64,000 nucleotides of DNA from positions 2,068 to 66,067 of the forward strand of contig DATINJ010000382.1 of the NCBI GenBank assembly GCA_035474375.1, in the 5' to 3' direction. This DNA comes from Kineosporiaceae bacterium (GTDB lineage Bacteria > Actinomycetota > Actinomycetes > Actinomycetales > Kineosporiaceae). Below the pieces are notes generated by a model that had not been told where the DNA came from, did not search any database, and was given only the letters and a program-made list of their open reading frames with translations. The position numbers were made by a program, and so were the translations under genes. Below are positions 10,991-56,837 of this stretch, one piece after another. Within the stretch, counting starts at the first letter, position 1, and every line of letters begins with the position of its first letter.

Positions 10991-11113
10991 GTGGCGTTCT
11001 ATTCGTTTCCGACGTGCTCCGACGGCACAAATCGACGCACCGACGCTCGAGGTTCATCCTGGCACGTCCGACACGAATCGATGTTTGGCCCACCTGTTTG
11101 ACACGATGTCTCC

Positions 11114-11791: not shown

Positions 11792-11795
11792 TCCG

Positions 11796-15421: not shown

Positions 15422-15553
15422 GTCGCACGCCACGATCTCGCGGTCGTCGTCCGCTCCGCGCGTCCTCTCCTCCACAGGCGGCAGTTCTGCGCCTCGATCC
15501 ACAGATTTCGGCCGGCCGCCGTCCGTCGGCCACCTGCCGGGCAGGCTGTCTGT

Positions 15554-16306
15554 ATGCCAGAGGTACCAATCACAGTCGGGTCCGGCCTGCGCGCCGGTTT
15601 GCGTGCCGGGACGACGCTGATCTGGCCGGTCAGCTGCGCGGGTTGCGGGTTGCCCGACGTCCCGATCTGCTCACGGTGTCGGGCCGCCGTCGCCGGGCCG
15701 GCCTTCTGCACCCCGGTGGTTGGCTGGCCCGCGGGGTTCGGCGCCTGGGCGGCGTGCAGCTATCGGGGCTGCGCAGCGCGGCTACTGATCGCCTGGAAAG
15801 AACGAGGCCGGCGCGACCTGACCGGGCCGCTGGGAGCCGGTCTGGGTGCGGCGCTGCTGGCCTGCCGGGCCGCGCACGCTGACCCGGCGTCGCCCTGGTT
15901 GCTGGTCCCGGTTCCGACCACCCGCGCCGGCCGCCGTCAGCGCGGCGGTGACCTGATGGTCGACTTGACTCGTCGGGCGGCAGCGACCTGCCGGCCGGCC
16001 TGGAACGGGCCACCACCGCAGCCGGTTCAGGCCCTGACGCATGTCCGAAGGGTCCGCGATCAGGGGGCGCTGGGGGCCTCTGGCCGGCGCGCGAATCTGC
16101 GTGGAGCCCTTGCGGTCCGGGATTCGATGACAGATCTGGTGTCCGGGCAAAGCTGCGTGGTGGTCGACGATGTCGTGACAACTGGGACAACAGCGGCCGA
16201 AGCGGCGCGGGCGTTGACATCGGCAGGTGCACGCGTGGTGGGGGCTTGCTTCCTCTCAGTGACATTGCGTGAACTGGGGGTGCCCGAGGAGGCATCTAGG
16301 GACTAG
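15554..16306 (+). CDS. comF: ComF family protein (ComFC-like phosphoribosyltransferase)
   Basis: N-terminal Cys-rich zinc-finger-like CAGCG...CSRC and a C-terminal PRTase motif VVVDDVVTTGTT. Confidence 0.75.
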   Translation: MPEVPITVGSGLRAGLRAGTTLIWPVSCAGCGLPDVPICSRCRAAVAGPAFCTPVVGWPAGFGAWAACSYRGCAARLLIAWKERGRRDLTGPLGAGLGAALLACRAAHADPASPWLLVPVPTTRAGRRQRGGDLMVDLTRRAAATCRPAWNGPPPQPVQALTHVRRVRDQGALGASGRRANLRGALAVRDSMTDLVSGQSCVVVDDVVTTGTTAAEAARALTSAGARVVGACFLSVTLRELGVPEEASRD

Positions 16307-16518
16307 CCTCAACAGATGAACGGCACCCCCGCCGCGATCGCCGTCCAAACGGCGCTGTCTTGCTGGCGGGTCTGGAAGGGGGTGTTAGGGAGCAACTCCC
16401 AGCGATTTCCGATCTGACGCTTCGACACTGAGTCGTCCGCATCTCGAGCCAGCGCCAGATTCTGGACCCGGTGAGCGGACCCGGACCTTGTGTTACTCCA
16501 GCTACAGGAGGATTCCCC

Positions 16519-17307
16519 GTGGACATCGTGATCACTGGCCGTCGAACCGAAGTCACAGACCGGTTCCGAAGGCTTGCGGAGGAGAAACTGGCGAAGGTTT
16601 CGCAGTTCACTCCCAGCGCGTATCGGATAGACGTCGAGCTGTCCCATGAGCGCAATCCACGACAGTCCAACACTTGCGAGCGAGTCGAGATCACGGTTCG
16701 GGACAAGGGACCGGTGATTCGGGCCGAGGCTTGCGCCGAAGACCCGCTGGCCTCGCTCGACATCGCCTTCGGCAAACTCCTTGAGCGGCTTCGTCGGATG
16801 GGGGATCGGAAGAAGGTGCACCACGGTCGGCACGCGCCGGTGTCGGTGCGCGGAAGCAACATGCTGTCCGGATCGGTACCCGCCGGCGGTGCCGGATCGG
16901 GCGTCGGTACCGCGGTCGCCGAACGGCCTCTGGACGACAGCGACCATGACCACGCTGGTCAGAACGGTCACGTACACAGCGACGCGAACGGAGCCCGTCG
17001 TTCCGGCGGAGTGGACGTCGAGGATCCGGCTTTCGACGACCTGGCCGATCTGGTGGGTCGCGCCGACCTTCCTGAAGGTGCCGAGGCCCTCGCGGACAGC
17101 CCGGTCGTGATCCGGACGAAGGACCACACCGCCACCCCGATGACCATTGATCAGGCGCTCTACGAGATGGAACTTGTCGGCCACGACTTCTACCTCTTCG
17201 TGGACGCCGCGTGCGGGAAGCCGTCCGTCGTCTATCGTCGGCGCGGATGGAACTACGGAGTGATTCGCCTGGCGGTCGAGCAGGAAGCAAAGGCCACGCC
17301 AAGCTGA
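16519..17307 (+). CDS. hpf: Ribosome hibernation promoting factor (long form)
   Basis: Start moved to the GTG at 16519 with an AGGAGG RBS 7 nt upstream. N-terminus [17 protein letters not shown], acidic/His-rich linker and a C-terminal dimerisation domain. Confidence 0.9.
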
Positions 17308-17444
17308 CGAGGACAAGATCTGCTGCCCCGCGGGGCGCTGAGGCGGCGCGCCCGCCGGATTTCGATCCGGCGAGCGCGCCGTCGTCCGTTGCGGGGAGCC
17401 CGCCGACGGTCTCGGCCGTCGCTCGCGGATCTGGCCCTCGCCGG

Positions 17445-18680
17445 ATGAGCCTGCTCCAGGCCCGCCGGGTCGCCCTGGCCGCTCAAGGGTTCGGAGTCGA
17501 CCGCCCCGGGGCCGGCCAGTCGCACGGAGACACGCCGATCACGATGCGGCAGATCCAACGGGTGATCGACACCGTCGGCATTCTTCAGATCGACTCGGTG
17601 AACGTCCTGAGCCGCAGCCACTACCTGCCGGTATTCAGCCGGCTCGGCAATTATCCGCGCGAACTGCTGGACCGCGCCTCCACGACGGCACCGCGCCGTC
17701 TGGTGGAGTACTGGGCACACGAGGCGTCGTTCGTGCCGCCGCAGACGCACCGGTTGCTGCGCTGGCGGATGGCCCGGGCGGCGGACGAGGCGTGGGGCGG
17801 GATGGCGCGGACCGCCCGCGAGCGGGCCGACCTGACCGACGTGGTGCGCGCCGTGATGGCCGAGCACGGGCCCTTGACGGCCGCCGCCGCTGAGCGCTTG
17901 ATCGGTGACGACCGGCCGCGCGAGCGCAACGGTCAGTGGGGCTGGAACTGGAGCGACGTCAAGCGGGTGATCGAGTTCCTGTTCTGGTCCGGGGAACTCT
18001 CGTCGGCGGGTCGGACCAGCCAGTTCGAGCGCCGGTACGCACTGCCCGAGCGGGTGTTGCCGGCTGCGGTGGCCTCCGCTCCGGATCCGGACCCGGACGA
18101 CGCCCGGCGAGATCTGGTCCGGATCGCCGCTCGTGCGCTCGGCATCGCCAGTGAGAAGTGCCTGCGGGACTACTTCCGCCTCAAGCCCGGCGAGGCGCGG
18201 GCCGCGATCGCCGATCTGGTGGCGGCCGGTGAGCTGATCCCGACCACGGTGGAGGGCTGGGACCGGCCCACCTATCTGCATCCGCAGGCCCGGCTGCCCC
18301 GGCGGATCACCGCTCGGGCCTTGCTGAGCCCGTTCGACTCGCTGGTCTGGGAGCGGCCTCGCACCGAGGCGCTGTGGAACTTTCGGCTGCGGCTGGAGAT
18401 CTACACTCCGGCGGCCAAGCGGGTGCACGGCTACTACGTGCTGCCGTTTCTGCTCGGTGACCAGTTGGTGGGTCGGGTGGATCTGAAGGCCGATCGGGCA
18501 CCCGGGGGCGGCGGGGCGCTGCTGGTCCGCGCGTCCTGGGTGGAGCCCGGCATCCCCCCCGAAGCGGTGGCCCCGGAACTAGCCGAGGAGCTGGATCTGA
18601 TGGCCGAGTGGCTGGAGCTGGACGAGGTACGGATCGCCTCGGTCGGTACGTTGGCGCCCGCCCTGCAAAACCTGCGCTGA
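17445..18680 (+). CDS. Winged-helix DNA-binding protein of the YcaQ/AlkZ-like (DUF1006) family
   Basis: Start moved to the ATG at 17445, because the track ORF overlaps hpf. N-terminus [15 protein letters not shown] is typical of the family. Confidence 0.7.
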
Positions 18681-18703
18681 GCGGGCTGATCTCCTCGCGG
18701 CTG

Positions 18704-18783
18704 GTGATCGCCAGCCGTGCCCACTTAGGTGCCCTTCGTCGGCGCTAAAGCGGGCACACCTGGCGATCTTGGCGGTGCGGCGG
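18704..18783. repeat. REP-like palindromic intergenic element, copy 2
   Basis: Same 19-mer as at 5213. Interrupted stem GATCGCCAG-cc-GTGCCC pairs with GGGCAC-ac-CTGGCGATC (18760-18768). Confidence 0.7.
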
Positions 18784-18837
18784 GGCTATTCCGGCCGGTT
18801 GGCGGTTAGCGGCCGGTCGCCGGTTGGCGGCTAGCAG

Positions 18838-19434
18838 TTAGGGGGACGGCGGATCGCTGCTCAAGCGGGCATGCAGGTGTTCGTCGGAACGGCGGCCGTC
18901 CACCGGGTAGCGCATCGCCGAGCGCATCACGCCCTCTGCCGAGTAGCCGGCCCGCTTGGCCACGCTGCAGGACCGCTCGTTCTCCACCGCGTGATAAAGC
19001 TCGACCCGATGCCAATCGAGCCGGTCGAAGACCAGCCGGGTCGCCGTCCGCAGCGCGCCGGAGGCCAGACCCCGACCGCGGCCTTCCGGTAGCAGCCAGT
19101 AGCCGACGGATCCGGTGCCGATCTCCGCGTCGATCAGACCGAACCGTACCGAGCCGACGATCTGCCGGCTCGGATCGCAGATCGCCCAGGCGGCGCCCCG
19201 GCCCTGCTGCCACTGATCGGACCAGGTGAGCAGGGCTGCCAGGGCGTCCCGCCGGTCGTCGATCAGCTGCCCGGCGTACTGCCGGACCAGGGCGTCGCGC
19301 ATTCCGATCACCATGTCGGGGGCGTCGCTCGTGCTCCACGGCCGGAGCCGGTAGCCAGCGGTCAGCTCGAGTTGAGGTTGCCGGCGTCCGCTCATCGAAG
19401 GGATTCCATCACTGGATGGCCGCAGCTGTTGCAT
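18838..19434 (-). CDS. GNAT family N-acetyltransferase (RimJ/RimL-like)
   Basis: Acetyl-CoA binding core (RGRGLASGAL). An alternative start at 19395 is possible. Confidence 0.8.
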   Translation of the reverse strand: MQQLRPSSDGIPSMSGRRQPQLELTAGYRLRPWSTSDAPDMVIGMRDALVRQYAGQLIDDRRDALAALLTWSDQWQQGRGAAWAICDPSRQIVGSVRFGLIDAEIGTGSVGYWLLPEGRGRGLASGALRTATRLVFDRLDWHRVELYHAVENERSCSVAKRAGYSAEGVMRSAMRYPVDGRRSDEHLHARLSSDPPSP

Positions 19435-19446
19435 CGGGTCCGGTGC

Positions 19447-20604
19447 TCAGCGCACCGCAGGCAGTTCGTCGGCGAGCAGATCGAAGCGCAGATGGTCGCT
19501 TCGGGTTCCGTCGCGGCGCAGGTTCCCGTCCCGATCTCGACCGGAGAAGGTGAAGCCTGCCTTCTCGGCCACCCGCTGGGAGGCGAGGTTGTCGACGTCC
19601 GTGCGGATCAGAATTCGGTCCAGGCCAAGACCACCGTCCTCCTCGGGCAACAGCGCATGCCGGGCCACGAGTTGAACTCCTTCCGTGATCACCCCACGAC
19701 CGCGGGCGTCCGGATGCGTCCAGTAGCCGATCTCGCCCTGTGGATCGTTCGGGTCGCGGATGAATAGCGCCAGGTCGGCGAGCAGTCGGTCGTCATCGGG
19801 ATCGGCGACCACCCACTGCACCCCGCGACCGGCGGCCTGCTCGGCGCGAATCTGTTCCAGGTGCTGGCGGGCGTGGATCTCGGAGTAGTCGTCCGGCAAT
19901 CCGGCCAGCCAGTGCCGGGTCTGCGGATCCCGGCAGGCCTCGACCATCCGGGGCACGTCCTGCTCGCGGTGCGCGCGCAGCACGGTCGTCTTGCCGATCA
20001 CCGGGGCCGGGTCGTACCAGGGGTGCACCGGCTGCAACCGGGTATTGCGAGTGATCGCGGCCAGCCAGCCGTCGACCAGGTTGCCGCGTTGCTCCAGCAG
20101 GCCGGGCACCACGGCGTCCACCCGGAACCCGACTGCCCAGGCGACCCGCCGACTCGCCCAGTTACCCACCTGAGCCCGCCAATGGACGACGTCGATCCTG
20201 GCGTCGTGGAACCCCCAGGGCAGGACGAGTCGCAGCGCCCGGGTCATCAACCCCTGGCCGCGGGCCCCAGCCGCGAGCGAGAAGCCCACCTCGGCCTGCC
20301 TGGCGTGTTGCGGGCGGAGGTTCACGTCACCGATCAAGCGGCCGTTGTGCTCGATGCCGAACTGATAGCGGCTACCGTCGGACCAGCCGGCTTCGTTCAG
20401 TGCCAGCCAGCCCTCGGCGTGCTTGCGCTCGTACGGTTGCGGAAGCGATGACCACTGACTGATCAGCGGGTCGTTGGAGATCTCGACGATGGCGTCGAGA
20501 TCTTCGGTGCGGAACCCACGCAGCGTGACAACGCCGTCGGTCAGGGTGGGAATCGGGCCGTGGAAAGCGCCGGGCGGGGAGCTCACCACAGGAGCCTGAC
20601 GCAC
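19447..20604 (-). CDS. Tandem two-domain GNAT N-acetyltransferase
   Basis: 385 aa with two RimJ-like halves, each carrying a Q/RxxGxG/A motif (ARGQGLMT and ARGRGVIT). Confidence 0.8.
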
Positions 20605-20758
20605 CGTTCGGGCGTCGGCAAACGCGTTTCGTTGCCAAGCTGTCTACGATGGCCTGTGGCATGTACGGGCACGGCTGGATGCCGCCGTTCGTCATGCCTA
20701 TAGCGGCGGTGCGATTCGACCGCAGATCGCACAGTTCAATGACTTGGGAGAACACCCC

Positions 20759-23473
<2,715 letters not shown>

Positions 23474-24771: not shown

Positions 24772-25374
24772 CTAACCGATCTCCAGTTCGGTGACTCGCC
24801 AGCGACCGTGTAGGCCCTCCATCCGGAATGCGACTGCGCGAACCCGATCGGGTTCGGCAATGACGGCACTGACCTCGCATACCCCGGCCCGGGGGGCGCA
24901 GGCGACCAAGGCGCGAACCCGAGGCTTGGACGCCGTGGCGATTCCCCGTCTGGCTCTGGCTGTCAGGGCTCCCCGACGCACGAGGATGGCGTGCACCTCC
25001 GGGGTGGTCCAACGCACCAACTGCCCGGCCGAGCGCAGCCCGCCCGCCACCTCCATGGCGGCCTGGATGAACGTGGCGGCCCAAAGCTTCGGCTCAGGAA
25101 GCAAAGCCGCACGGTCTGGTTTCCGCTTGGCTGTCGCCTGGGCGACCGGCTGCTCGGATGCGCTGAGGTCGACAGCTTCGGTTGGTAGTGCCAGCGCCAG
25201 CGTTCCCTGGGTGTGCGCCGTAGTAGTCGTTCGGTCGTATCGGAAAACTCTTGAAGCGGAACGTGGTTCGTGTTTCGGAACGGCGGAGCGGCGGAGCCGG
25301 GGTAGGGTCGGATTGGCGGCGATGCCAGGAGTGCTTTCGGGTGGTCGGGTGACCGGTAGTGCCGAACTCATCAT
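24772..25374 (-). CDS. Rv3235-like conserved actinobacterial protein
   Basis: Start set at the ATG 25374, which forms an ATGA overlap with the upstream LysM gene stop. The C-terminal part resembles the family conserved downstream of secA. Confidence 0.6.
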   Translation of the reverse strand: MMSSALPVTRPPESTPGIAANPTLPRLRRSAVPKHEPRSASRVFRYDRTTTTAHTQGTLALALPTEAVDLSASEQPVAQATAKRKPDRAALLPEPKLWAATFIQAAMEVAGGLRSAGQLVRWTTPEVHAILVRRGALTARARRGIATASKPRVRALVACAPRAGVCEVSAVIAEPDRVRAVAFRMEGLHGRWRVTELEIG

Positions 25375-26408
25375 CCACCTCGATTCTCGGAGTCGGCCGT
25401 AACACTGGTTCCAGTAGAGGTTTTCGCATCGTCTCGGGAGCCGGACCGGGCGGCTGGTCCAGCTCGATGGCGGCCGAGGTGAGCGTCCGATGCGGGTGGA
25501 CGCAGCCGCTCCCCAGGAACGAGATAGTCGGGGTCGTTGCCGATTACAGCTCGATTCGCGGTGAACCAATGTGGCCAGTCGCGGGCGATCTCTGCGTTCG
25601 TCGCCGTCGGGCCGAGGTGGTGTTCGGCGACGCTCCACAGCGTGTCGCCGCGGCGCACGACGACCTCGTCATCGCTCGTGGACGGCTTCCTCGTGGACGA
25701 CTCGCTCGCGGCCGGCGCTCTCGTCGGCGGCCTTCTCGTGGGCGACGTGCTTGTGGGTGGCGTGCTTGTGGATGGCTCGCTCGTGGGCGACGTGCTTGTG
25801 GACGGCTCGCTCGTGGGCGATGCGGGTCTGGGCGGACGGTTCGGGATCCATCCCGGAAGCAGTTCGGATTGCGGTGCTGGGGTCGGGGCGAGGCCGCGAG
25901 TGATGGGTCGAACAGTGGCGGCGGCTACCGGAGCCCAGGCTGGGGATAGTCCTTCGGTAAGGAGCGGTTGTGCGCCACGGGTTCGAGTGGCTACCAGTTC
26001 CGAGGCCGGGTGCCGGGCGCTCGCGTGCGCGGTGGCAGGACCGGCCGCGATGGCGACCCCGAGCACCGCAGCGACGGCGTTGCGCAGTGCTTTGGGCGCC
26101 AGTACGCGGGCGGTGCTGGTCACGGTGGTGCCGACGGCCGAGGATCTGGACCCGAGTGCCGCCAGCACGCTGAGAAGCAGGGCGCTGAGCAACCAGAGCG
26201 AGATGGCCAAGGCCACAGAACCGCAGATGGCGGCCAGTGCCTGGTCGACGCTGGCCGGACCGGGTTCAAGCACCGAGCGCCAGGCGGACTCGCTCACCGA
26301 CATGAGTTGCAGGCAGAGCATCGCCAGCAGGGCGAGTCCCGAGCCGGTAAGGGCTAGCCCGCGAGTTCGGGGCGCGGAGAGTGGTTGACGAATCTGAGGT
26401 GAGTTCAC
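25371..26408 (-). CDS. Membrane-anchored LysM peptidoglycan-binding protein with a Pro/Ser/Thr-rich linker
   Basis: Start set at the GTG 26408 with a GGAGGAG RBS directly upstream. TM helices, PST repeats, C-terminal LysM (VRRGDTLWSVAEHHLG...VPGERL). Confidence 0.7.
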   Translation of the reverse strand: MNSPQIRQPLSAPRTRGLALTGSGLALLAMLCLQLMSVSESAWRSVLEPGPASVDQALAAICGSVALAISLWLLSALLLSVLAALGSRSSAVGTTVTSTARVLAPKALRNAVAAVLGVAIAAGPATAHASARHPASELVATRTRGAQPLLTEGLSPAWAPVAAATVRPITRGLAPTPAPQSELLPGWIPNRPPRPASPTSEPSTSTSPTSEPSTSTPPTSTSPTRRPPTRAPAASESSTRKPSTSDDEVVVRRGDTLWSVAEHHLGPTATNAEIARDWPHWFTANRAVIGNDPDYLVPGERLRPPASDAHLGRHRAGPAARSGSRDDAKTSTGTSVTADSENRGG

Positions 26409-26511
26409 GTCTCCTCCGGCCCTTGGCTGACGCTGTTCCAGCACTTGATGTCGTTTGATGCCTTTTAGTGTCGCTTGATGCAAGTGATGGCGTCCAGTGC
26501 TGCGTCGAATC

Positions 26512-26520
26512 TGTGGATAA
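26512..26520. promoter_or_regulatory. TTATCCACA box (reverse orientation) in the divergent promoter
   Basis: The plus strand reads CTGTGGATAAG. The box is 39 nt upstream of the ATG at 26559 and 104 nt upstream of the GTG at 26408. Confidence 0.6.
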
Positions 26521-26558
26521 GTCCCAAACGGTGGGTGCGAGACGGCTAGCGTCAGCAG

Positions 26559-27107
26559 ATGCGTTGGGAGCGACTGTTCGACGATCTCGAGGCGCAGTTG
26601 GAGGCAGAGGAACGCACTGCTGCCGAGGGTGAGATCGCCGATCTCGTCCGTGCTGAGCGCGCACGCCTGGCTGTCGTCGATCGATTGAAAGCCCACCTCG
26701 GTGAGCCGCTCACCTGGGCATTGGTCACCGGTGAACCGGCATTGACCGGTCGATTGCTGGACGTCGGTGCCGACTGGGTGCTGGTCGCGACGGCAAGCGG
26801 GGAGTCGCTGATCCCGATCGGCGCGGTCCAGTCCATCACTGGGTTGTCCCGGTTCACTGCGCCGGAGGCCGGCGAGGTCGCGCGACGACTGGGGATCGGA
26901 GTGATCCTGCGTGGGTTGTCCCGTGACCGCGCTGTGGTTGGGATCCGGCTAAAGGGAGACCAGCGAGTGACCGGAACCATCGACCGGGTCGGGGTCGATC
27001 ACTGCGATCTCGCCGTCCACCCGGAGGACGAACCCCGCCGCGAACGCGCGGTGCGTGAGGTGCGCTGCGTGCTGCTGCCCGCCATCGTCGGGGTCAGCGT
27101 TCGCTGA
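26559..27107 (+). CDS. Conserved hypothetical protein
   Basis: 182 aa with protein-like composition and high GC3. No motif recognised. Confidence 0.6.
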   Translation: MRWERLFDDLEAQLEAEERTAAEGEIADLVRAERARLAVVDRLKAHLGEPLTWALVTGEPALTGRLLDVGADWVLVATASGESLIPIGAVQSITGLSRFTAPEAGEVARRLGIGVILRGLSRDRAVVGIRLKGDQRVTGTIDRVGVDHCDLAVHPEDEPRRERAVREVRCVLLPAIVGVSVR

Positions 27108-27136
27108 CGCGGCCGGTGAGATTCGACCCGAGTCTC

Positions 27137-27215
27137 CGGGCGGGTCGCTTCGGGCGGGTGGGTCCGGGGGTGGGCTCGGGACGTGGGCTCGGGGCGGTGG
27201 GCTGGGGGAGTATGG
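27137..27215. repeat. G-tract-rich (plus) / C-rich (minus) low-complexity repeat region
   Basis: At least 12 runs of GGG or longer, with the recurring unit GTGGGCTCGGG. It lies between convergent genes. Confidence 0.8.
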
Positions 27216-27231
27216 GCTGCGGCGCAGTGGA

Positions 27232-27468
27232 TCAGGCGTCGTCCGCGTGATCCTCGACCGCCGTTGGCCGGGACCGGACCATGTCCCGGGTCTCGGCGTA
27301 CTTCCGCTGGATGTAGTTCTCCAGTTCGGTGGCTTCCACTCGCCACTGGCCTCGGCCGCCTACCTGAATCGCCGGTAAATCGCCGCTGTGGACCAGCGTG
27401 TAGGCCTGCCTCGCCGAGATGTTCAGCATCTCCGCGACATCCGCCAGTTGAAGAAAGCGGGGTTCCAC
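27232..27468 (-). CDS. Excisionase-type (HTH_17-like) helix-turn-helix DNA-binding protein
   Basis: 78 aa with a GTG start and an AGGAGG RBS 5 nt upstream. HTH segment LADVAEMLNISARQAYTLVHSGDLPAIQVGGRGQWRV. Confidence 0.8.
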   Translation of the reverse strand: MEPRFLQLADVAEMLNISARQAYTLVHSGDLPAIQVGGRGQWRVEATELENYIQRKYAETRDMVRSRPTAVEDHADDA

Positions 27469-27546
27469 GCAGCCCTCCTGTGATTTCGGCCGAGCGAATA
27501 CTCGGTTCCGGCAAGTGTGGCACGCAGGGTTGTCGGCCGTGTCGAG

Positions 27547-27582
27547 TTATCCACAGGCCAGAGGACCGGCGGTTTATCCACA
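27547..27582 (+). promoter_or_regulatory. Two direct perfect TTATCCACAG boxes, 27 bp apart
   Basis: Boxes at 27547-27555 and 27574-27582, between the HTH gene (minus) and the SAF-TadZ operon (plus). Confidence 0.65.
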
Positions 27583-27737
27583 GTTCCCGGAATGGCTGTC
27601 CCGAAGGTCCGTATTCTGCCAACATGTCGGCGAAAACGTGCGAGGTGAAGGGTTGGATCAGAATCGTCGGCTTCGAGGGTCTGCGGGGAGAAGTTGCGGG
27701 TAGGAGCAGGCAGAGCCGGTCGGCATCGGTCCAGTAG

Positions 27738-27805
27738 TGCAGATGATCCGGCAATGCAGATGATCCGACGATGCAGATGATCCGGCGGCTCAGGTAGTCC
27801 GGCGG
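27738..27805 (+). repeat. 3-4 x 17-bp direct repeat upstream of the SAF gene
   Basis: TGCAGATGATCCGGCAA, TGCAGATGATCCGACGA and TGCAGATGATCCGGCGG, plus a degenerate fourth unit. It ends 23 nt before the ATG at 27828. Confidence 0.85.
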
Positions 27806-27827
27806 GGCAGACAGAGGGGGCACCTCA

Positions 27828-28514
27828 ATGACGCTGACCGGTACCGCCGCGCCACTCAGCGAGCTCACGGCGCCTCGGCTGAGACGACCTTCGTGGCGCG
27901 ATCCCCGATTGTTGATCGGGCTCGTCCTGCTGCTCACCTCGGTAGCTCTCGGTGCCAGGGTGGTGGCGTTGGCCGATCGCACCGAACCGGTCTACGCGGC
28001 GCGGGTCACCCTTCCGTCCGGAACACCGCTTACCTCCGACGCGCTGAAGGTCGTCCGGTTTCGGCTCACGGGCACGGCGGCCGGCTACCTGGACGCGCGG
28101 CACCCCCTGCCGGCGGGCCAGGTCATGGTCCGGCCGGTCGGTGCCGGGGAACTCGTCCCACTCACCTCGATCGCCTCGGCCGGTCAACTCTTGGTCCGGC
28201 CGGTGAGCATCCCGATCGACGCTGATCCGCCACGCGGGCTGGCTCCCGGTGGCGTGGTGGACCTCTGGGCCTCCGCCAAGCGCCGGGACGACGTGGGCGG
28301 TGGATATGACCCGCCCGAACAAATCGCCCATGCGGTCGAGGTCTTCGACCTGCGCATCCCGGGCGCTGGGCTGTCGGCGAGCCGCACCGGATCCGTCGAG
28401 GTGCTGCTGAGTTCCGAGGATCTCGCGCCGGTGCTGGATGCGCTGGCGAACCAGGCACGAGTGGCGGTCTTGCCGGTGCCCGGCCTGATCGCTCGCGATC
28501 AGGAGCAGCGATGA
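27828..28514 (+). CDS. SAF domain protein (CpaB/RcpC-like Flp pilus assembly component)
   Basis: N-terminal TM followed by a SAF-like domain. GAGGGGG RBS. ATGA overlap with the TadZ-like gene. Confidence 0.7.
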   Translation: MTLTGTAAPLSELTAPRLRRPSWRDPRLLIGLVLLLTSVALGARVVALADRTEPVYAARVTLPSGTPLTSDALKVVRFRLTGTAAGYLDARHPLPAGQVMVRPVGAGELVPLTSIASAGQLLVRPVSIPIDADPPRGLAPGGVVDLWASAKRRDDVGGGYDPPEQIAHAVEVFDLRIPGAGLSASRTGSVEVLLSSEDLAPVLDALANQARVAVLPVPGLIARDQEQR

Positions 28515-29887
28515 GTCGTACCGGGGCAACACTGACTGTCCTGACCGCCGTTGTCGGCGACGGCGAGGCTCCGTTGGTCTCCGGCCTGGAACGCTCCTCG
28601 GCCGGTGTCCAGGTCGTCCGCCGATGCGCTGATCTGGTCGAACTGTTGTCGGCGGCAGCAGCCGGGTTGGCCCGAGCGGTCGTGCTGTCCGCGGATCTGC
28701 AACGCCTGGATCGCGACGCGATAGCCCAGCTGACCGCGGTTGGCGTGGCCGTGATCGGGCTGTTCGATCCGAAGGACGCTGCGGCCGCCCGAAGGCTGGC
28801 CGATCTCGGAGTGCAGCAGGTGTTGCCGGCTGACACCCCGACCGAGGAGATCGCCGCAGCGGTGACGTCAGCCGTCGCGGATCTTTCCGATCACCAGGCC
28901 CGAGCCGCTCGAAGTCGGTTGGGGATAGCGGATCCGGGCCTTGCGGCGCCGGCTCCGCCGAGCAGGCGTCGGGCCGGGTCGGTGCCGTCGGCTCGGCCGC
29001 CGGGCCGGGTGGTCGCCGTCTGGGGCCCGGTCGGCGGACCCGGAAGGACGACGGTCGCAGTCACGCTCGCCGCCGAACTGGCGGCGGCCGGTCACGAGAC
29101 CTTGCTGGTGGACGCCGACACGTACGGCGCGAGCGTGGCTCAGTCGCTGGGCCTGCTGGACGAGTCGGCAGGCCTCGCCGCGGCTGCTCGGGCTGCGAAC
29201 CAGGGCGCCCTGGACGTTCCCCGGCTCGCCGAGTTCGCGCCCTATGCCGGGGCGCGATTGCGCGTACTCACCGGACTTCCGCAGTCTCGTCGCTGGCCGG
29301 AACTGCGCTCCGCCGCGCTGGACACGGTCTGGCAGCACGCTCGCCGACTGGCAACCTGGACGGTGATCGATGCCGGATTCGGCTTGGAAGCGGACGAGGA
29401 GATGATGTTCGACACCGCTGCTCCACGCCGGCACGGGGCCACCCTCTCCGCGGTGACCAGCGCAGATCTGGTCATCGCCGTCGGTGCCGCCGAGCCACTG
29501 GGGCTGCAACGTCTGCTCAGCGGGCTGCAAGATCTTGCCGAGGTCGTACCGGCCGGCTCGCCGCTCAAAGTGGTGGTGACGAAAGTCCGTGACGCCGCGG
29601 TCGGGGCGAACGCCGAACAACGGGTTCGGGAGGCGTTGGACCGCTATGCCGGGGTCCGGGACGTGGTGCTGATCCCAGACGATCGGGCGGTACTGGACGC
29701 GGCCATGCTGGCTGGTCGGTCGCTCACCGAGCATGCGCCGACCGCACCGGCGTGCCGGCCGCTGACCGAACTTGCGAGCCACCTGGCCGCCGAGGCCGGC
29801 CTGCGTCACGATCAAGGGCGATCCGGCGGACGTCTCGGTCGAGGGGGACGGCGGCGCGGCCCGCGCCGGGCCCGCCGCTCAGCCTGA
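28511..29887 (+). CDS. TadZ/CpaE/Ssd-like ParA-MinD family protein
   Basis: N-terminal receiver-like domain plus a ParA-type domain (VVAVWGPVGGPGRTTVAVTLAAELA...LLVDAD). Both P-loop lysines are absent. Confidence 0.8.
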   Translation: MSRTGATLTVLTAVVGDGEAPLVSGLERSSAGVQVVRRCADLVELLSAAAAGLARAVVLSADLQRLDRDAIAQLTAVGVAVIGLFDPKDAAAARRLADLGVQQVLPADTPTEEIAAAVTSAVADLSDHQARAARSRLGIADPGLAAPAPPSRRRAGSVPSARPPGRVVAVWGPVGGPGRTTVAVTLAAELAAAGHETLLVDADTYGASVAQSLGLLDESAGLAAAARAANQGALDVPRLAEFAPYAGARLRVLTGLPQSRRWPELRSAALDTVWQHARRLATWTVIDAGFGLEADEEMMFDTAAPRRHGATLSAVTSADLVIAVGAAEPLGLQRLLSGLQDLAEVVPAGSPLKVVVTKVRDAAVGANAEQRVREALDRYAGVRDVVLIPDDRAVLDAAMLAGRSLTEHAPTAPACRPLTELASHLAAEAGLRHDQGRSGGRLGRGGRRRGPRRARRSA

Positions 29888-45809: not shown

Positions 45810-46213
45810 TCGGTTCCCCGTCCAACGTGGGTCAATTTGATCCAGGAGCCACTGTCGTTGACGCCGACGATGACTTCACCGGCGAGGGCGCGAAGGACCG
45901 TCCAGGAAAAGCTTGCGCCAGCCGGCAGTTCCTCGACCGGCCCGGCGATGATGACCGAGATCGTGCTGTTCCCGACGCTGAACGCGGCGTTCAGCGTGCG
46001 GCCCGGATGTGCGCGCCCGCCCAGGAGCAAGGAGCAAGCCTCATCCACGGCTATCCGCAGATCCTCGATCTCGTCCAGCGTGAGCTTCAGGCGAGTGGCC
46101 AGACCGGCTGTTGCCGTGCGGACCACGGAAAGATACGCGGGGTCGGCGGGAACTCGGAGATCCACCGCGTCCGTCGTCGTTACCGCCGCTTGCCTTTGAT
46201 CGCCACGCGTCAT
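45806..46213 (-). CDS. RsbW/UshX-like anti-sigma factor (HATPase-type)
   Basis: Start set at the ATG 46213 (GTG at 46222 is possible, with a GGGGGG RBS-like run upstream). Core motif VPADPAYLSVVRTATAGLA...EIEDLRIAVDEA. Confidence 0.75.
   Translation of the reverse strand: MTRGDQRQAAVTTTDAVDLRVPADPAYLSVVRTATAGLATRLKLTLDEIEDLRIAVDEACSLLLGGRAHPGRTLNAAFSVGNSTISVIIAGPVEELPAGASFSWTVLRALAGEVIVGVNDSGSWIKLTHVGRGTE

Positions 46214-47071: not shown

Positions 47072-47075
<4 letters not shown>
46422..47075 (-). CDS. GNAT acetyltransferase (diamine/SSAT-like) with a Pro/Ser/Thr-rich N-terminal extension
   Basis: Core motif LYVQPAYRQLGVGRALL...RMEWCVLDWN. ATGA overlap with the stop of the upstream FtsK-domain gene. 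Confidence 0.85.
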
Positions 47076-51799
<4,724 letters not shown>

Positions 51800-51936: not shown

Positions 51937-53253
51937 ATGCTTCCTTCTCAATCGCTGGCAGCGCCCGTCAGATCAACTCTGTCCGTGATCGAGCCCGGTG
52001 ATGAATCGAGAGCGGGGGTGGTCGTGGACGCCGTGGCGATCGTGTCCGACGAGGTCCGAGACCTGATTCGGCGCGAAGGCATCGACCCGGGCCGAGATGT
52101 CGGGCGGTTGCGCCGGTTGGTCGAAGCTGTCGTCGCTGACTACGACGAACGTTCGCTGACCAGAGCGTTGCCACCGCTGATCGATACCGCGATCGCCGTG
52201 AAACGGGTGCTGGACGACGTCGCGGGCTTCGGTTCGCTGCAGCCATTTCTTGACGACCCGGGCATCGAGGAGATCTGGATCAACGAACCTGGCAAGGTTT
52301 TCATCGCCCGCTCCGGTGTCAGCGAACTCACCTCCGTCATCTTCACCGCCCAAGAGGTCCGAGACCTGGTCGAGCGAATGCTCAAGAGCAGTGGCCGCCG
52401 GGTCGACCTGTCCAGCCCTTTCGTCGATGCGATGCTTCCGGACGGCTCCCGGTTGCACGTCGTGATCCCGGACATCACTCGAAGCGAGTGGGCAGTCAAC
52501 ATCCGAAAATTTGTCATCCGGGCGACAACGCTGGACGACCTGGTCACGTTGGGAACGCTCACCCCGCAAATGGCCGACTTCCTGGTCGCTTCGGTGGTCG
52601 CCGGGCTGAACATCCTAGTGTCCGGCGGCACTCAGGCCGGCAAGACGACGATGCTCAACTGCCTGCTGGGGGCGGTACCGGCTCGCGAACGAGTGATCAC
52701 CTGCGAGGAAGTCTTCGAATTGCGGGTGCCGATCCGAGACTGGGTGGGAATGCAATGCCGTCAGCCCAGTCTCGAAGGTACCGGCGAGATTCCGCTGCGT
52801 CGGCTGATCAAGGAAGCCCTCCGGATGCGACCCGACCGACTGATTGTCGGTGAGGTGAGACAGGCCGAAAGTCTTGATCTGCTCCTTGCTTTGAACAGCG
52901 GCCTGCCCGGCATGGGGACCATCCATGCGAATTCCGGGCGAGCCGCGATCATCAAGATGTGCACGCTTCCGCTGCTCGCAGGCGAGAACGTGAGCGCTCG
53001 ATTCGTCGTTCCGACGGTTGCGAGTTCGATCGATCTGGTGGTGCAGATCGCGCTTGACGGTGACGGTCGACGTCGAGTCCACGAGATCATCTCGGTTCCG
53101 GGCCGGGTCGAGGGTGACGTGATCGAGACCGCCGAGATCTTCGTCCGACGTGATGACCGGGTAGTGCGCGCAGATGGGTTCCCTCCGCACCCAGATCGCT
53201 ACCGGCGTGCCGGGATCGATCTCCCGGCGCTGCTTCACGGCGGCTGGAGGTAA
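51937..53253 (+). CDS. cpaF: CpaF/TadA family secretion ATPase
   Basis: Walker A VSGGTQAGKTT and Walker B RLIVGEVR. The start is uncertain (ATG 51937; GTG options at 51985-52024). The track start 51844 lies inside the low-GC3 box cluster and was rejected. Confidence 0.88.
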   Translation: MLPSQSLAAPVRSTLSVIEPGDESRAGVVVDAVAIVSDEVRDLIRREGIDPGRDVGRLRRLVEAVVADYDERSLTRALPPLIDTAIAVKRVLDDVAGFGSLQPFLDDPGIEEIWINEPGKVFIARSGVSELTSVIFTAQEVRDLVERMLKSSGRRVDLSSPFVDAMLPDGSRLHVVIPDITRSEWAVNIRKFVIRATTLDDLVTLGTLTPQMADFLVASVVAGLNILVSGGTQAGKTTMLNCLLGAVPARERVITCEEVFELRVPIRDWVGMQCRQPSLEGTGEIPLRRLIKEALRMRPDRLIVGEVRQAESLDLLLALNSGLPGMGTIHANSGRAAIIKMCTLPLLAGENVSARFVVPTVASSIDLVVQIALDGDGRRRVHEIISVPGRVEGDVIETAEIFVRRDDRVVRADGFPPHPDRYRRAGIDLPALLHGGWR

Positions 53254-53256
53254 CCG

Positions 53257-54117
53257 GTGGGTGTCCTGGTCGGGTTGCTCTCGGGTACTGGTCTGTTCTG
53301 CATCTGGTGGTCGTTCTGGGCTCCGTCCGTCTCCTCAGCTCCCGGCTCTATCGGGCCGGTGGCCAGGGTCCGGGAGTTGTTGATCCAGGCAGACCTCCCG
53401 GCAGTCAGCCCGCAGGCGCTGGCGTTGACCTGCGTCGGCGTCGGGATCACCGGGTTTATCGCCGTGTTCGCGCTCAGTACCGTGCTGGCGATCGCGGTGT
53501 GCTTCGCGCTGTTGGCGACCTGGCTACCGGTGTCCCTGGTGATGGCTCGGGCCAGACGTCGTCGAGAGCGATGGCGTGAGTTGTGGCCGGAGGTCGTGGA
53601 CAACCTCGGTTCCGGAGTGCGGGCAGGGCTCTCGCTGCCCGAGGCGCTGGGGCAGATCGGCCAGCGCGGCCCGGAACCGCTGCGGGCTCCGTTCATCGCG
53701 TTCGCCCATGATTACCGCCTGACCGGGAACTTCGGCGAGGCGCTGGACGCACTCAAGGAGCGGCTCGCGGATCCGGTCGCTGATCGGTTGTGCGAGGCAC
53801 TGCGAATCACTCGTGAAGTCGGCGGGTCGGATCTCGGCCGGCTCCTTCGCGGACTCTCCGCCTTTCTTCGTGAGGACGCCCGGACTCGCTCCGAACTGGA
53901 GGCCCGGCAGAGCTGGACGGTCTATGCGGCCCGACTGGCCGTGACCGCGCCGTGGCTGGTCCTTGGCCTGCTCGCGACCAGACCGGAGTCGGTGGCCGCG
54001 TACGACCGCCCGGCAGGGACCGTCGTACTGCTGATCGGAGCAGTGGCCTCGGTGGCCGCTTACCGGCTGATGGTGCTGATCGGTCGGCTGCCCGAAGAAC
54101 AGCGGGTACTCAGATGA
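53257..54117 (+). CDS. tadB: TadB-like type II secretion system F-domain membrane protein
   Basis: GTG start with a GGAGG RBS 7 nt upstream. T2SSF domain and TM helices. Confidence 0.8.
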   Translation: MGVLVGLLSGTGLFCIWWSFWAPSVSSAPGSIGPVARVRELLIQADLPAVSPQALALTCVGVGITGFIAVFALSTVLAIAVCFALLATWLPVSLVMARARRRRERWRELWPEVVDNLGSGVRAGLSLPEALGQIGQRGPEPLRAPFIAFAHDYRLTGNFGEALDALKERLADPVADRLCEALRITREVGGSDLGRLLRGLSAFLREDARTRSELEARQSWTVYAARLAVTAPWLVLGLLATRPESVAAYDRPAGTVVLLIGAVASVAAYRLMVLIGRLPEEQRVLR

Positions 54118-55058
54118 CCACTGAACTGTCGGCCTCCGGTGCGCTCTTCGGTCTCCTGGCCGGTCTCGGCGGCTGGCTGATAATCAGCCGAGTGCCCTGG
54201 CGCCGAGCACCGACACTTGATCAACGGCTCGCACCGTATCTGCGCGGAATCCACCCTGCTGGGCGCCCCTCGGTCGCGGCGCCTGCGCATCACTCCCCGT
54301 TGGACGTCGTTGAGCGGGTTCTGGGCCCGTTCATGGGCGACGCCCTGCGCTGGGTGGAACGAATCAGCGGTGGCACCGGAACGGTACGCCGCCGCCTCGA
54401 CCAACTCGGCGGCCGGCGAACCATCGATCAGTTCCGCGCCGAGCAGGTGATCTGGGGTGTCGTCGGAGCCGCGGCGGGAGCAGCGATTGGTGGTCTCACT
54501 GTGATCGGGCGGGGCTTCAGCGTCGTTCCAGTCGTCGGGCTGGTCGTGATCGGAACACTGCTCGGTGTGCTCGGCCGCGACCTTTGGCTCAGCTTCCAGG
54601 TTCGCCGCCGCGACCGCCGCATCCTGGCTGAATTCCCAGCCGTCGCTGAGCTTCTGGCGCTCGCAGTCGGAGCCGGGGAAGGGCCGATGGGAGCGCTGGA
54701 GCGGGTCGCTCGCACCTGCCGGGGCGAGCTGTCAGCCGAGCTGCGGCGCACGGTCGCCGAAGTGCGAACCGGAATGCCGCTGACCGATGCCCTGACCGGG
54801 CTCGCGAATCGGACCACCCTGCCCAGCCTCGCTCGTTTCGTCGACGGAATCGTCGTTGCGGTGGACCGAGGCACCCCACTGGCAGAGGTGCTTCGCGCCC
54901 AAGCACAGGACGTTCGGGAGTTGACCCGCCGACAGCTGATGGAAGCAGGTGGCCGTCGCGAGATCGGGATGATGGTCCCCGTGGTATTTCTGGTGCTCCC
55001 GGTCACCGTCCTCTTCGCCGTCTACCCAGGGCTTGCCGTCCTGGATCTCAATCCGTGA
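54114..55058 (+). CDS. tadC: TadC-like type II secretion system F-domain membrane protein
   Basis: ATGA overlap with tadB. T2SSF domain. Confidence 0.8.
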   Translation: MTTELSASGALFGLLAGLGGWLIISRVPWRRAPTLDQRLAPYLRGIHPAGRPSVAAPAHHSPLDVVERVLGPFMGDALRWVERISGGTGTVRRRLDQLGGRRTIDQFRAEQVIWGVVGAAAGAAIGGLTVIGRGFSVVPVVGLVVIGTLLGVLGRDLWLSFQVRRRDRRILAEFPAVAELLALAVGAGEGPMGALERVARTCRGELSAELRRTVAEVRTGMPLTDALTGLANRTTLPSLARFVDGIVVAVDRGTPLAEVLRAQAQDVRELTRRQLMEAGGRREIGMMVPVVFLVLPVTVLFAVYPGLAVLDLNP

Positions 55059-55074
55059 CCCAAGGAGAGCACCG

Positions 55075-55353
55075 ATGAAGCTAGGTTCGATCGACTATCG
55101 GATCGGCCGACCGAGGGCAGATCGCCTGGACGCCGATGATCTCCTGAACCGGGCTTTCAGATGGAGTCTTTCGGCGAAGCAACGGATCTCGGCGCGAGTC
55201 TTCGACGTCAACCCGGAGCGCGGTGACGTGTCGGGCTGGGTCTTGGTGACCCTGATGACCGCCGGTCTGGTGGTGACGCTCTGGGCGGTGGCCGGCCCGC
55301 GTCTGGAGGAGGTGTTCAACGACGCGATGGACCGAGTGGTTGGCGGGCCGTGA
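55075..55353 (+). CDS. Flp-like / DUF4244-like small pilin-type protein (atypical)
   Basis: AAGGAGAG RBS. 92 aa with ERGDVSGWVLVTLMTAGLVV, a hydrophobic helix in the position of the Flp mature N-terminus. Confidence 0.55.
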   Translation: MKLGSIDYRIGRPRADRLDADDLLNRAFRWSLSAKQRISARVFDVNPERGDVSGWVLVTLMTAGLVVTLWAVAGPRLEEVFNDAMDRVVGGP

Positions 55354-55846
55354 GCACCCGGAGGCCGAACTGCGGGCACTGGAACGACGGGCATCGGAGC
55401 GCCGGGCCTTGGAACGCCGGGCACTGGAACGACAGGCATGGGAACGACAGGCAGTGGAACGGGTAGCCGACCGGGGCGCGGCGATCGTGGACTTCGTGCT
55501 GGTCGGCGGGCTATTGACGCTGCTCTTCCTCGCCGTCCTGCAACTCAGTATCGCCTTGCACGTGCGTAATGTATTGGTGGACTGTGCCTTTGAGGGAGCC
55601 CAGTTCGGCGCGCTGGCGGACCGGGATCCCCAAGCCGGCGCCGACCGGGCCCGCGAGCTGATCCGCAGTGAGCTGTCCGATCGGTATGCAGAGCAGGTCT
55701 CGGCCGGACTCGCCTGGGTGGACGGGCTGCCAACGGTAGAAGTGCGGGTCGAGGCGCCGCTACCGGTAATCGGCGTGTTCGGCGTCGGCCGGACCCTGAC
55801 CGTGTCCGGTCACGCGCTCGCCGAACAGCCCGTCCCGCAGCCGTGA
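55340..55846 (+). CDS. TadE-like pseudopilin protein (start uncertain: TTG 55340 or GTG 55454)
   Basis: RGAAIVDFVLVGGLLTLLFLAV resembles a TadE N-terminal motif. It is preceded by an in-frame (A/S)(L/W)ER(R/Q) x6 repeat. Confidence 0.7.
   Translation: MAGREHPEAELRALERRASERRALERRALERQAWERQAVERVADRGAAIVDFVLVGGLLTLLFLAVLQLSIALHVRNVLVDCAFEGAQFGALADRDPQAGADRARELIRSELSDRYAEQVSAGLAWVDGLPTVEVRVEAPLPVIGVFGVGRTLTVSGHALAEQPVPQP
55374..55463 (+). repeat. 6 x 15-bp tandem repeat
   Basis: GGGCACTGGAACGAC-type units at 55374, 55389, 55404, 55419, 55434 and 55449. Confidence 0.9.
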
Positions 55847-56325
55847 GATCGACCGCGCGGTCAACCGCCTGGAACCGGCCCCCTGTCCGGGACGACGGGT
55901 CGGCGACGATCGAGTTCGTTGTGATGGGGGTCTTGCTGCTGGTACCCCTGGTTTACCTCGTGATAGCCCTCAGCCGGATCCAGGCTGCTGCCTTCGCCGC
56001 CGACAGTTCCGCCCGCGAAGCAGCCCGCGCTTTCGTCACCGCGACTGAAGAGGATGACGGACGGCGTCGCGCATCGGTCGCCGTCCAGCTCGGTCTGCGT
56101 GATCAGGGATTCGGCAACCCCTCCGATGGTGATCTGGCAATCGAATGCGAAACGTCAAGGGCTTGCCTGACCCCGGGCAGTCAGATCCGTGTCCTGGTGA
56201 CGGTCCGAGTCATCCTGCCCGGCGTCCCACGATTTCTTGGTCACGCCTTGTCGACCGATGTCACCGTTCGCGCCCGACAGCTGGCAGTGGTGGACCAGTT
56301 CCGGGCGCAAGGTGGAGATCCATGA
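55843..56325 (+). CDS. TadE-like pseudopilin protein
   Basis: GTGA overlap with the previous gene. DDGSATIEFVVMGVLLLVPLVYLV motif. Confidence 0.7.
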   Translation: MRSTARSTAWNRPPVRDDGSATIEFVVMGVLLLVPLVYLVIALSRIQAAAFAADSSAREAARAFVTATEEDDGRRRASVAVQLGLRDQGFGNPSDGDLAIECETSRACLTPGSQIRVLVTVRVILPGVPRFLGHALSTDVTVRARQLAVVDQFRAQGGDP

Positions 56326-56837
56326 ACCGGCGATCCGAGAGCCAGCAATCGATGAACCGGCGATCCGCTGACCGGGGCAACGACGACGGGCAGATCCTTC
56401 CGCTGGTGATCGCCTACGTGCTGATTGCGTTTGCTCTGGTCGTCGTCGCTGTGAACATCACCGCGGTACACCTTCAGCGACAACGGTTGTTCTCGCTGGC
56501 CGACGCGGCTGCGCTGGATGCGGCCGATGCCTTGGATCGGTCCCGGTTCTATTCCCAGGGCGCGCAAACCGTATCTGGTGATGCGGCGGTGGCCGTTCCG
56601 CTGACAGACCTGACCGTGCGCTCCAGCGCAGAGCGATACGTGGTGGCTGCAGCGCCCTTGGCCAGGGTCGCGGACGTCGCGGTAGATCGGCCCACTGGCT
56701 CGCCCGACGGGGTGACGGCCGAGGTCACCCTGGTCGGACGGGCCACCTTGCCGCTGTTCAGCTTTGCTTCCGTGCGGTGGTCAGATGGCGTTCCGCTCCG
56801 GGCGACCGCACGGGCCCGGGCGCGCGTCTCGCCCTGA
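56322..56837 (+). CDS. TadG / Rv3654c-like pilus assembly protein
   Basis: ATGA overlap with the previous gene. N-terminal hydrophobic helix QILPLVIAYVLIAFALVVVAV. A duplicated ATGAACCGGCGATCCG occurs at 56322 and 56352. Confidence 0.65.
   Translation: MNRRSESQQSMNRRSADRGNDDGQILPLVIAYVLIAFALVVVAVNITAVHLQRQRLFSLADAAALDAADALDRSRFYSQGAQTVSGDAAVAVPLTDLTVRSSAERYVVAAAPLARVADVAVDRPTGSPDGVTAEVTLVGRATLPLFSFASVRWSDGVPLRATARARARVSP

Follow-up and report, generated by a model that had tools for sequence, protein, structure and literature searches.

A DnaA-box-identical sequence as a putative control element of natural-transformation genes in Actinomycetota

Background

The regulation of natural transformation in Actinomycetota has yet to be worked out, and the work on Micrococcus luteus considered here names genes and no cis-element. 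Here we describe a candidate for such an element, the nine-nucleotide sequence TTATCCACA, found repeatedly between divergent genes in a stretch of 64,000 nucleotides from a Kineosporiaceae bacterium (contig DATINJ010000382.1, positions 2,068 to 66,067; the whole stretch is called the window). The finding is real and more general than was seen in an earlier note on this DNA: comparison of related loci supplies a predicted phylum-wide control element, identical to the DnaA box, on comEA/EC, comF, Tad pilus and SAF-TadZ genes, together with a predicted promoter architecture and two candidate binders.

In M. luteus, an ethyl methanesulfonate screen was made for altered comEA/EC-lacZ expression (PMC8467076). 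Nearly every up-mutant of comEA/EC carried a mutation in one 550-bp region with Mlut_14660 and the divergent Mlut_14650-Mlut_14640 operon. Mlut_14660 is an HTH_17 protein of the excisionase family, and its lesions were S27L, S46F and R64W plus two single-nucleotide polymorphisms (SNPs) in the 5' region; R64W alone, when re-introduced, gave the same phenotype, and the gene could not be deleted. The divergent operon Mlut_14650 (SAF)-Mlut_14640 (CpaE) was highly expressed in competence medium, and deletion of SAF cut transformation 1e4-fold. Mutation of Mlut_07490, an FtsK/SpoIIIE-family gene transcribed divergently from Mlut_07500 (CpaF, tad-1), lowered transformation at least 1000-fold. No motif is described in that paper, and whether the HTH protein binds the comEA/EC promoter is, by the authors' account, still to be verified (PMC8467076).

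The DnaA box of Escherichia coli and Bacillus subtilis is TTATCCACA, and the "perfect" box of actinomycetes (M. tuberculosis, S. coelicolor) is TT(G/C)TCCACA (PMC4285127). In E. coli the sites bound in vivo read gagTTATCCACAg at oriC and datA and TTATCCACAg at DARS1, DARS2, nrdD and dnaA (PMC11317965). The box described here is a variant of two known kinds of element, DnaA boxes as transcriptional sites and competence-regulon boxes. In the literature searched (on the 9-mer in actinobacteria, the Streptomyces DnaA regulon, follow-ups of Mlut_14660 and the DnaA box together with comEA) we found no prior description of the motif, no later work on Mlut_14660 and no paper that connects DnaA boxes with comEA.

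Box copies in the window and the genes beside them

The window holds five exact copies of TTATCCACA and a lone copy matching at eight of nine positions, ATATCCACA. All six are intergenic and fall within three divergent gene pairs, as the earlier note had reported: the LysM-like gene (minus) and hyp182 (plus), the HTH_17 gene (minus) and SAF-TadZ (plus), and the FHA-FtsK-like gene (minus) and TadA (plus). The copies, with the scores of the weight matrix described below where given, are:

26512..26520, minus strand: single exact box facing the LysM-like gene and preceding a -35-like TGGACG (26491-26496) by 15 nt
27547..27555, plus strand: distal box of a direct pair, gTTATCCACAgg, in the spacer between the HTH_17 and SAF genes, exact and directed at SAF-TadZ; 20.2 bits, the matrix maximum being 20.3
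27574..27582, plus strand: proximal box of the same pair, tTTATCCACAgt, exact, 27 bp from the distal one; 17.3 bits
51843..51851, minus strand: proximal exact box facing the FHA-FtsK/EccC-like gene and preceding a -10-like CAGAAT by 30 nt; 20.2 bits
51873..51881, minus strand: distal 8/9 box, ATATCCACAgg, 30 bp from the 51843 box and in the same orientation; 15.5 bits
51889..51897, plus strand: exact TTATCCACA toward the TadA operon
15468..15503, plus strand: weaker direct pair, TCCTCCACAgg (15468) and CGATCCACAga (15495), 27 bp apart in the spacer between lpqB and comF

The last pair was absent from the list of the earlier note. The next base is G after the copies at 26512, 27547, 27574, 51843 and 51873 and A after that at 51889, so that what the note said of the first three, position and trailing G alike, is confirmed; the 79 and 114 nt that it gave between the HTH start and two of the boxes are also correct. 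It had guessed that the 9-mer should occur well under once per 64 kb, and dinucleotide-preserving shuffles agree, with a mean of 0.01 copies per shuffle and none of 100 reaching five. The G+C content, put there at roughly 70%, was measured at 67.8%. A further box at 35509 was discarded, as it lies inside a DUF2505 coding sequence.

The genes beside the boxes are:

25371..26408, minus strand: LysM-like secreted/membrane protein gene
26559..27107, plus strand: gene of a conserved 182-aa protein of unassigned function (hyp182), divergent from the LysM gene
27232..27468, minus strand: gene of a 78-aa HTH_17 protein (excisionase/BldC-type winged helix), assigned by Pfam/TIGR match and fold model
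27828..29887, plus strand: SAF/CpaB-like gene (27828-28514) and gene of a TadZ/CpaE-like ParA-family ATPase (28511-29887), a probable operon
47072..51799, minus strand: gene of a 1575-aa FHA-domain FtsK/SpoIIIE (EccC-like) ATPase, divergent from TadA in the way that Mlut_07490 is from Mlut_07500
51937..56837, plus strand: Tad pilus operon with TadA/CpaF (51937-53253), TadB, TadC, two TadE-like genes and a TadG-like gene
15554..16306, plus strand: ComF-like phosphoribosyltransferase gene

Judged by gene content, these box-bearing regions are the same arrangements as the M. luteus transformation loci. Cluster 13 of that species (Mlut_14660/14650-40) and its tad-1/Mlut_07490 region show the gene families and the divergent layouts of the window, the likeness to cluster 13 being drawn from the families and gene arrangement described in PMC8467076. 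The 78-aa HTH_17 protein is the putative counterpart of Mlut_14660 by its family, its divergent SAF-CpaE operon and its conserved context. One difference is that the M. luteus operon has a PAS histidine kinase, whereas in the window a HAD hydrolase gene follows tadZ. The earlier note had proposed a coupling to a TadZ/Ssd-type septum-site module. With TIGR03815, the Ssd equivalog, the TadZ-like protein reaches 43.9 bits, below the cut-off of 154.45, and since its M. luteus counterpart lies in a transformation locus the septum-site reading is unsupported; the module is predicted to be a competence-pilus module, with a link to DNA uptake.

Conservation of the box and refined motif

A profile search with the HTH protein gave 80 loci from reference genomes, including Kineosporia, Cryptosporangium, Terrabacter, Cellulomonas, Oerskovia and Nostocoides as well as metagenome-assembled genomes labelled Jiangellales, Frankiales, Nanopelagicales and Acidimicrobiales. 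The synteny of the window, with the SAF and TadZ genes divergent from the HTH gene, hyp182 convergent with the latter, and the LysM gene divergent from hyp182, is retained in about 70 of the 80. A search with TadA gave another 80 loci, metagenomic and without taxonomic labels, at 64-88% identity. The core TCCACA was found in 69 of 74 TadA upstream regions, mostly as GTT(G/A)TCCACAGG, and the spacer between the HTH and SAF genes contains CTGTGGACAAC, the reverse complement of GTTGTCCACAG, in most loci.

Refinement by expectation maximisation (EM) over 209 spacers, seeded with the box and not conditioned on its exact core, gave the motif g-T-T-(G/A)-T-C-C-A-C-A-G-g, in which core positions 4-9 are conserved at 92-100%:

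5' flank: g.67
position 1: T.71 (C.20)
position 2: T.66 (C.31)
position 3: G.63 or A.30
position 4: T 1.0
position 5: C.96
position 6: C.99
position 7: A.92 (C.07)
position 8: C.98
position 9: A.97
3' flank 1: G.83
3' flank 2: g.54

Position 3 moves toward A in lower-G+C lineages and in the window. Boxes were called in the spacers with the 12-column position weight matrix at a threshold of at least 11 bits. The matrix finds 4.11 boxes per kb in 46 kb of orthologous spacers and 0.074 per kb in the other 1.87 Mb fetched, a 55-fold enrichment. At that threshold a box is present in 69 of 75 TadA spacers, in 61 of 70 HTH/SAF spacers and in 21 of 64 hyp182/LysM spacers, counts that come from phylogenetically related loci and are not independent events. 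Pairs of boxes on the same strand have spacings that cluster at 27-32 bp across the spacers. The alignment of orthologous spacers, a check proposed in the earlier note, thus shows the box conserved across many actinobacterial orders, and the dispersed regulon suggested there is strongly supported by this conservation and by boxes before comF and comEA-comEC, described below.

Some loci depart from the common pattern. In locus L157 (~3858-3917), four perfect tandem copies of CAACCGGTGTGTGGA with a 15-bp period lie upstream of TadA, so that the box itself has been amplified. A core variant TCCCCAG, with position 7 changed from A to C, stands at the homologous position, for the most part in Terrabacter and allied Intrasporangiaceae, in the HTH promoters of L024, L026, L033, L034, L037, L057 and L061, before comEA in L163 and L168 and before comF in L026 and L033. 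Two TadA loci lack a TadA-proximal box and have it one gene farther upstream, before a gene for a BNR-repeat protein (L102, 44-52) or for a Ser/Thr protein kinase (L150, 298-324); these two genes may have joined the operon. An HTH homologue with 60-66% identity in Dactylosporangium and Virgisporangium (L018, L020, L040, L045, L050, L053, L054 and L059) has neither the box nor SAF, TadZ, hyp182 or LysM neighbours. It keeps the GGCAAACT -10-like element and a leaderless start and is probably a paralogue.

Boxes at competence genes

Outside the known spacers, the strongest boxes in the HTH loci lie directly upstream of ComF-like genes. Of 22 regions upstream of comF, 15 contain a box that scores at least 11 bits, nearly always directed at comF and often paired 27-31 bp apart. 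Nine comEA-comEC loci were fetched with a hand-written ComEA helix-hairpin-helix consensus; the matches were validated by Pfam HHH_3 and an adjacent ComEC gene, and eight had usable upstream sequence. A box was found upstream of comEA in six of these eight, in five of them as a direct pair 29-30 bp apart and oriented toward comEA. One of the five comes from Yinghuangia, a member of the Streptomycetales (L169).

One motif is therefore common to pilus, comEA/EC and comF promoters, the pattern of a competence regulon, and we conclude with high confidence that the box is a conserved cis-regulatory mark on the promoters of the genes for natural transformation (Tad-pilus DNA uptake) in Actinomycetota. 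The set comprises comEA-comEC, comF, the tadA operon with the FtsK-like gene, SAF-tadZ and the HTH_17 gene, joined by LysM/hyp182 in about one third of loci. The competence boxes of other phyla (the K-box of ComK, the com-box of ComX, CRP-S/Sxy sites) are likewise one short motif across pilus, ComEA/EC and ComF promoters, and the promoters likewise lack a normal -35. The box described here differs from them in sequence and in candidate binder, with no homologue of ComK, ComX or Sxy involved. Whatever the protein that reads it, the box provides a practical marker for predicting actinobacterial competence regulons, including those of Streptomycetales (L169).

Promoter architecture

All assignments of -10, -35 and start sites were made by eye. 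At comEA the layout is a distal box, 23-24 nt, a proximal box, 38-40 nt, a -10 element, 6-7 nt and the ATG; the -10 takes the forms TAGGTT, TAGCGT, TACCGT and TAACCT and no -35 is recognisable. The two boxes lie near -52 to -60 and -82 to -90, on the same helix face. The comF pair of the window fits this spacing, with 38 nt to a -10-like CAGGCT, and the comF ATG is probably leaderless. The proximal box of the FtsK-like gene, at 30 nt from CAGAAT, is one helical turn closer than at comEA. In the hyp182/LysM spacers the box faces LysM and stands 14-17 nt before a -35-like TTGAC/TGGAC, and the window is alike, its LysM box ending at about -51; 28 of 32 boxes in LysM spacers are directed at the gene. 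The box of the HTH gene itself is reversed, at about -46 to -36, some 27 nt upstream of a -10-like CACACT in the window. In most HTH loci CTGTGGACAAC precedes a -10-like TGGCAnACT by 23-26 nt, and in many cases the start codon comes 6-8 nt after that element, so that the HTH mRNA is probably leaderless. Taken together, the positions of the boxes suggest activator-type sites.

The start of TadA is ambiguous (51937-52024). Reading from the ATG at 51937 yields 438 aa, against 422 aa in the public record P0121, to which the TadA of the window is 100% identical and which begins 16 codons later, and against 406-411 aa in most homologues, so that the leader may exceed its assumed length by 50-90 nt.

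Two other explanations of the conserved sequence were tried and rejected. CTGTGGACAAC holds TGGACA, which could pass for a sigma -35 element, but the 24-27 nt to the -10 are too long and the box occurs in both orientations. An RNA element was looked for with Rfam on 26300-27900, which gave only a sub-threshold chance match.

Candidate binders of the box

We regard DnaA acting as a transcription factor as the most likely physiological binder and give it about an even chance. The 9-mer fits TT(A/G/C)TCCACA, in the five exact copies of the window and in the motif from the 209 spacers. The only freely variable core position is the third, where the DnaA boxes of E. coli and of actinomycetes differ, and the flanks of the EM motif, with the trailing G at 0.83 and the 5' G at 0.67, match those of sites that are bound in E. 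coli cells, the 5' G being present at some of them. The DnaA-box identity pointed out in the earlier note thus holds over 12 bp, which correspond to the actinomycete DnaA box with the flanking G of E. coli in-vivo sites. The trailing G had been considered as an argument against DnaA and was dropped, the E. coli sites being mostly TTATCCACAg. C at positions 1-2 is reported in a functional M. tuberculosis oriC box, CCGTTCACA. Going by the published specificity of actinobacterial DnaA, nearly all of the readings weighed here predict that the protein can at least bind such perfect boxes in vitro. DnaA boxes outside oriC (E. coli dnaA, nrdAB, polA and mioC; the B. subtilis regulon) share the same 10-12 bp including the flanking G and likewise lie in promoter regions where one to three boxes suffice. 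The difference from these known DnaA-regulated promoters is in the targets, here the natural-transformation machinery, unlinked to DnaA in the literature searched.

In the mechanism that we propose, DnaA would bind the boxes, single or in direct pairs about three helical turns apart, near -43 or -52 and near -82; standing upstream of promoters with a -10 and without a -35, they would have an activator geometry. The status of DnaA, and with it the replication and nutrient state of the cell, would gate expression of the uptake machinery, and the HTH_17 protein, with a reversed box at about -41 in its own promoter, would be controlled along with it and act negatively, a role suggested by the genetics of M. 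luteus. If DnaA binds, DNA uptake would be tied to the state of the replication initiator, a coupling undescribed for any competence system in the literature searched.

Several points weigh against DnaA. We know of no report of the TCCCCAG core variant as a good DnaA box. A regulon motif in the own promoter of a regulator is the usual signature of the operator of that regulator. The dnaA gene and oriC were looked for in the window and in the 169 fetched loci for a comparison within the same genome and were not found. The pairs are 27-32 bp apart and not the double boxes at 2-3 bp that E. coli DnaA favours in vivo (PMC11317965), a preference that may not hold for actinobacterial DnaA. The M. 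luteus screen implicates HTH_17, not DnaA, in the control of comEA/EC, and no dnaA mutation appears in those parts of its text and tables that were available (PMC8467076); since dnaA is essential, such mutants would be hard to obtain.

The second candidate is the 78-aa HTH_17 protein, which matches PF12728 (49.9 bits, cut-off 27) and TIGR01764 (34.2, cut-off 28.8). Its AF2 model (pLDDT 84) has Pukovnik Xis and BldC as best fold matches in the PDB, with TM 0.79-0.87 (normalised to the target) and 24-28% identity, and includes an extra long C-terminal helix (residues 46-66); a PDB sequence search with the HTH profile gave marginal matches only. With BldC, Pukovnik Xis and RdfS it shares the fold of small monomeric MerR-like winged helices, from which the long C-terminal helix sets it apart. 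The box could be the operator of this protein, an autoregulating master competence regulator, and its identity to the DnaA box a coincidence or an evolved mimicry, under which the two proteins would compete for the same sites. We consider this possible but on the whole unlikely, and what probability we grant it reflects mostly the mimicry or competition. The HTH gene is the sole DNA-binding gene of the conserved cluster, its own promoter is boxed in 61 of 70 loci, protein and box are both highly conserved across orders, monomers of the Xis/BldC type read asymmetric units of about 9 bp, and in M. luteus nearly all comEA/EC up-mutants are altered in the matching gene or its 5' region, R64W alone being sufficient. 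Despite this high prior for a co-located, autoregulated regulator we weigh DnaA above it, because a specificity shared by chance over 12 positions, including the flanks and one degenerate position, is very unlikely, and because the match to the DnaA site extends over its full length while the box does not covary with the HTH protein's recognition helix. Covariation between this helix and box variants was looked for across the lineages and none was seen: its exposed residues vary (ISVRQAY, VSAVQAR, ISAAQAY, ISAPQAY, IQVRHAR) and the box stays constant, whereas the TCCCCAG variant of Terrabacter goes with an HTH protein identical to that of lineages with the canonical box. BldC reads AATTxxxxC units by the minor groove's shape, with few base contacts and in contiguous head-to-tail filaments (PMC5859096). 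Unlike such contiguous AT-rich repeats of about 9-10 bp, which were not found here, the box has a G+C-rich, nearly invariant core and stands single or 27-32 bp apart; this paralogue may have another mode of reading. The activator-like position of the box at promoters without a -35 also contrasts with the genetics, which indicate a negative regulator. Should the HTH protein be the binder, it would be a small winged helix mimicking DnaA specificity. A more speculative version, which we find doubtful, is that HTH_17, possibly essential, is a dedicated reader of DnaA boxes, evolved to recognise the 10-12 bp site of DnaA, that competes or cooperates with DnaA here and might do so at oriC too; a single DNA word, read by two proteins, would in that case link competence with the initiation of replication.

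The remaining explanations are weaker. Competence regulons elsewhere have dedicated boxes and factors (ComK, ComX, CRP-Sxy), and a further factor, a competence-specific activator or an element associated with an alternative sigma, could read the box with DnaA and the HTH protein as bystanders. The fairly fixed distances from box to -10 at comEA and comF agree with this, but no candidate gene co-occurs in the conserved loci, both orientations and several distances (about -41, -52 and -82) misfit a sigma -35 element, and the exact identity to the DnaA site is left unexplained, so that we hold this to be improbable. Clusters of DnaA boxes that control initiation exist in Streptomyces, and the boxes here are perfect and of the high-affinity type, a trait shared with the datA/DARS clusters; they could thus be titration (datA-like) or other replication-control sites with no transcriptional role, as the earlier note had partly envisaged. 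This is very improbable, as there are only one to three boxes per site, placed at fixed distances from core promoters and oriented toward genes, and they recur at one functional gene set whatever the gene order. No dense cluster (at least 4 boxes per 600 bp) was found outside these promoters in the material searched, the five flagged being four TadA upstream regions and the probable comF promoter of L051; what distinguishes the boxes from datA and DARS is their tie to promoter geometry and one functional gene set. The least probable reading is a site of the response regulator MtrA. The older MtrA motif GTCACAGCG is superficially like GTCCACAGG and mtrA-mtrB-lpqB lies immediately upstream of comF in the window, but MtrA sites determined by chromatin immunoprecipitation sequencing consist of direct GTnAC repeats that are degenerate and recur every 11 bp. 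In the box the core TCCACA is invariant, both C's exceed 95%, and the copies stand single or in pairs at 27-32 bp. No GTnAC repeats of that kind were found in it, and MtrA was rejected on this motif architecture.

Further repeats and neighbouring genes

Between the -35 and the start of LysM the word [CT]AAA[CG] recurs in tandem and in direct orientation every 10-11 bp (26445-26480, minus strand, in the window), for example GCATCAAACGACATCAAG, and AAGCAAACGTAGGCAAACG in other genomes. They were found in 47 of 64 hyp182/LysM spacers (L001-L080), always in LysM orientation, and are absent from comEA and TadA promoters. Their format resembles the sites of OmpR-type response regulators; MtrA is encoded in the window, and the repeats have no Rfam match. 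Such tandem CAAAC/GTAAAG repeats had been considered as a shared operator of the HTH protein and were discarded, as they are specific to the LysM promoter and cannot explain control of the whole regulon.

Just upstream of the SAF start, in its long leader or promoter, 27738-27786 consists of 2.9 copies (90% matches) of the 17-bp unit TGCAGATGATCCGGCAA. G-rich tandem repeats of 12-14 bp (GGGTGGGCTCGG and similar) fill 27134-27208, in the convergent gap between the stops of hyp182 and the HTH gene.

The genes mtrA-mtrB-lpqB-comF-hpf ... secA form a conserved actinobacterial block (11102-23473 in the window) upstream of the HTH/LysM region; in the window hpf and secA are separated by three inserted genes, one for an AlkZ-like glycosylase and two of the GNAT type. 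A gene for a 386-aa sigma-70-family factor (44715-45875, minus strand) lies between two box-bearing regions and has no box before it; the M. luteus screen also struck a sigma-70-family gene, Mlut_17340, in two up-mutants (PMC8467076).

A third type of element, paired words of the GGTAAAGA / GGTCAAGAA type about 11 bp apart, lies beside the box in a subset of lineages, in the HTH/SAF spacers of L025, L032, L036, L079 and L044 and upstream of TadA in L097, L107, L110, L117, L119, L120, L131 and L141.

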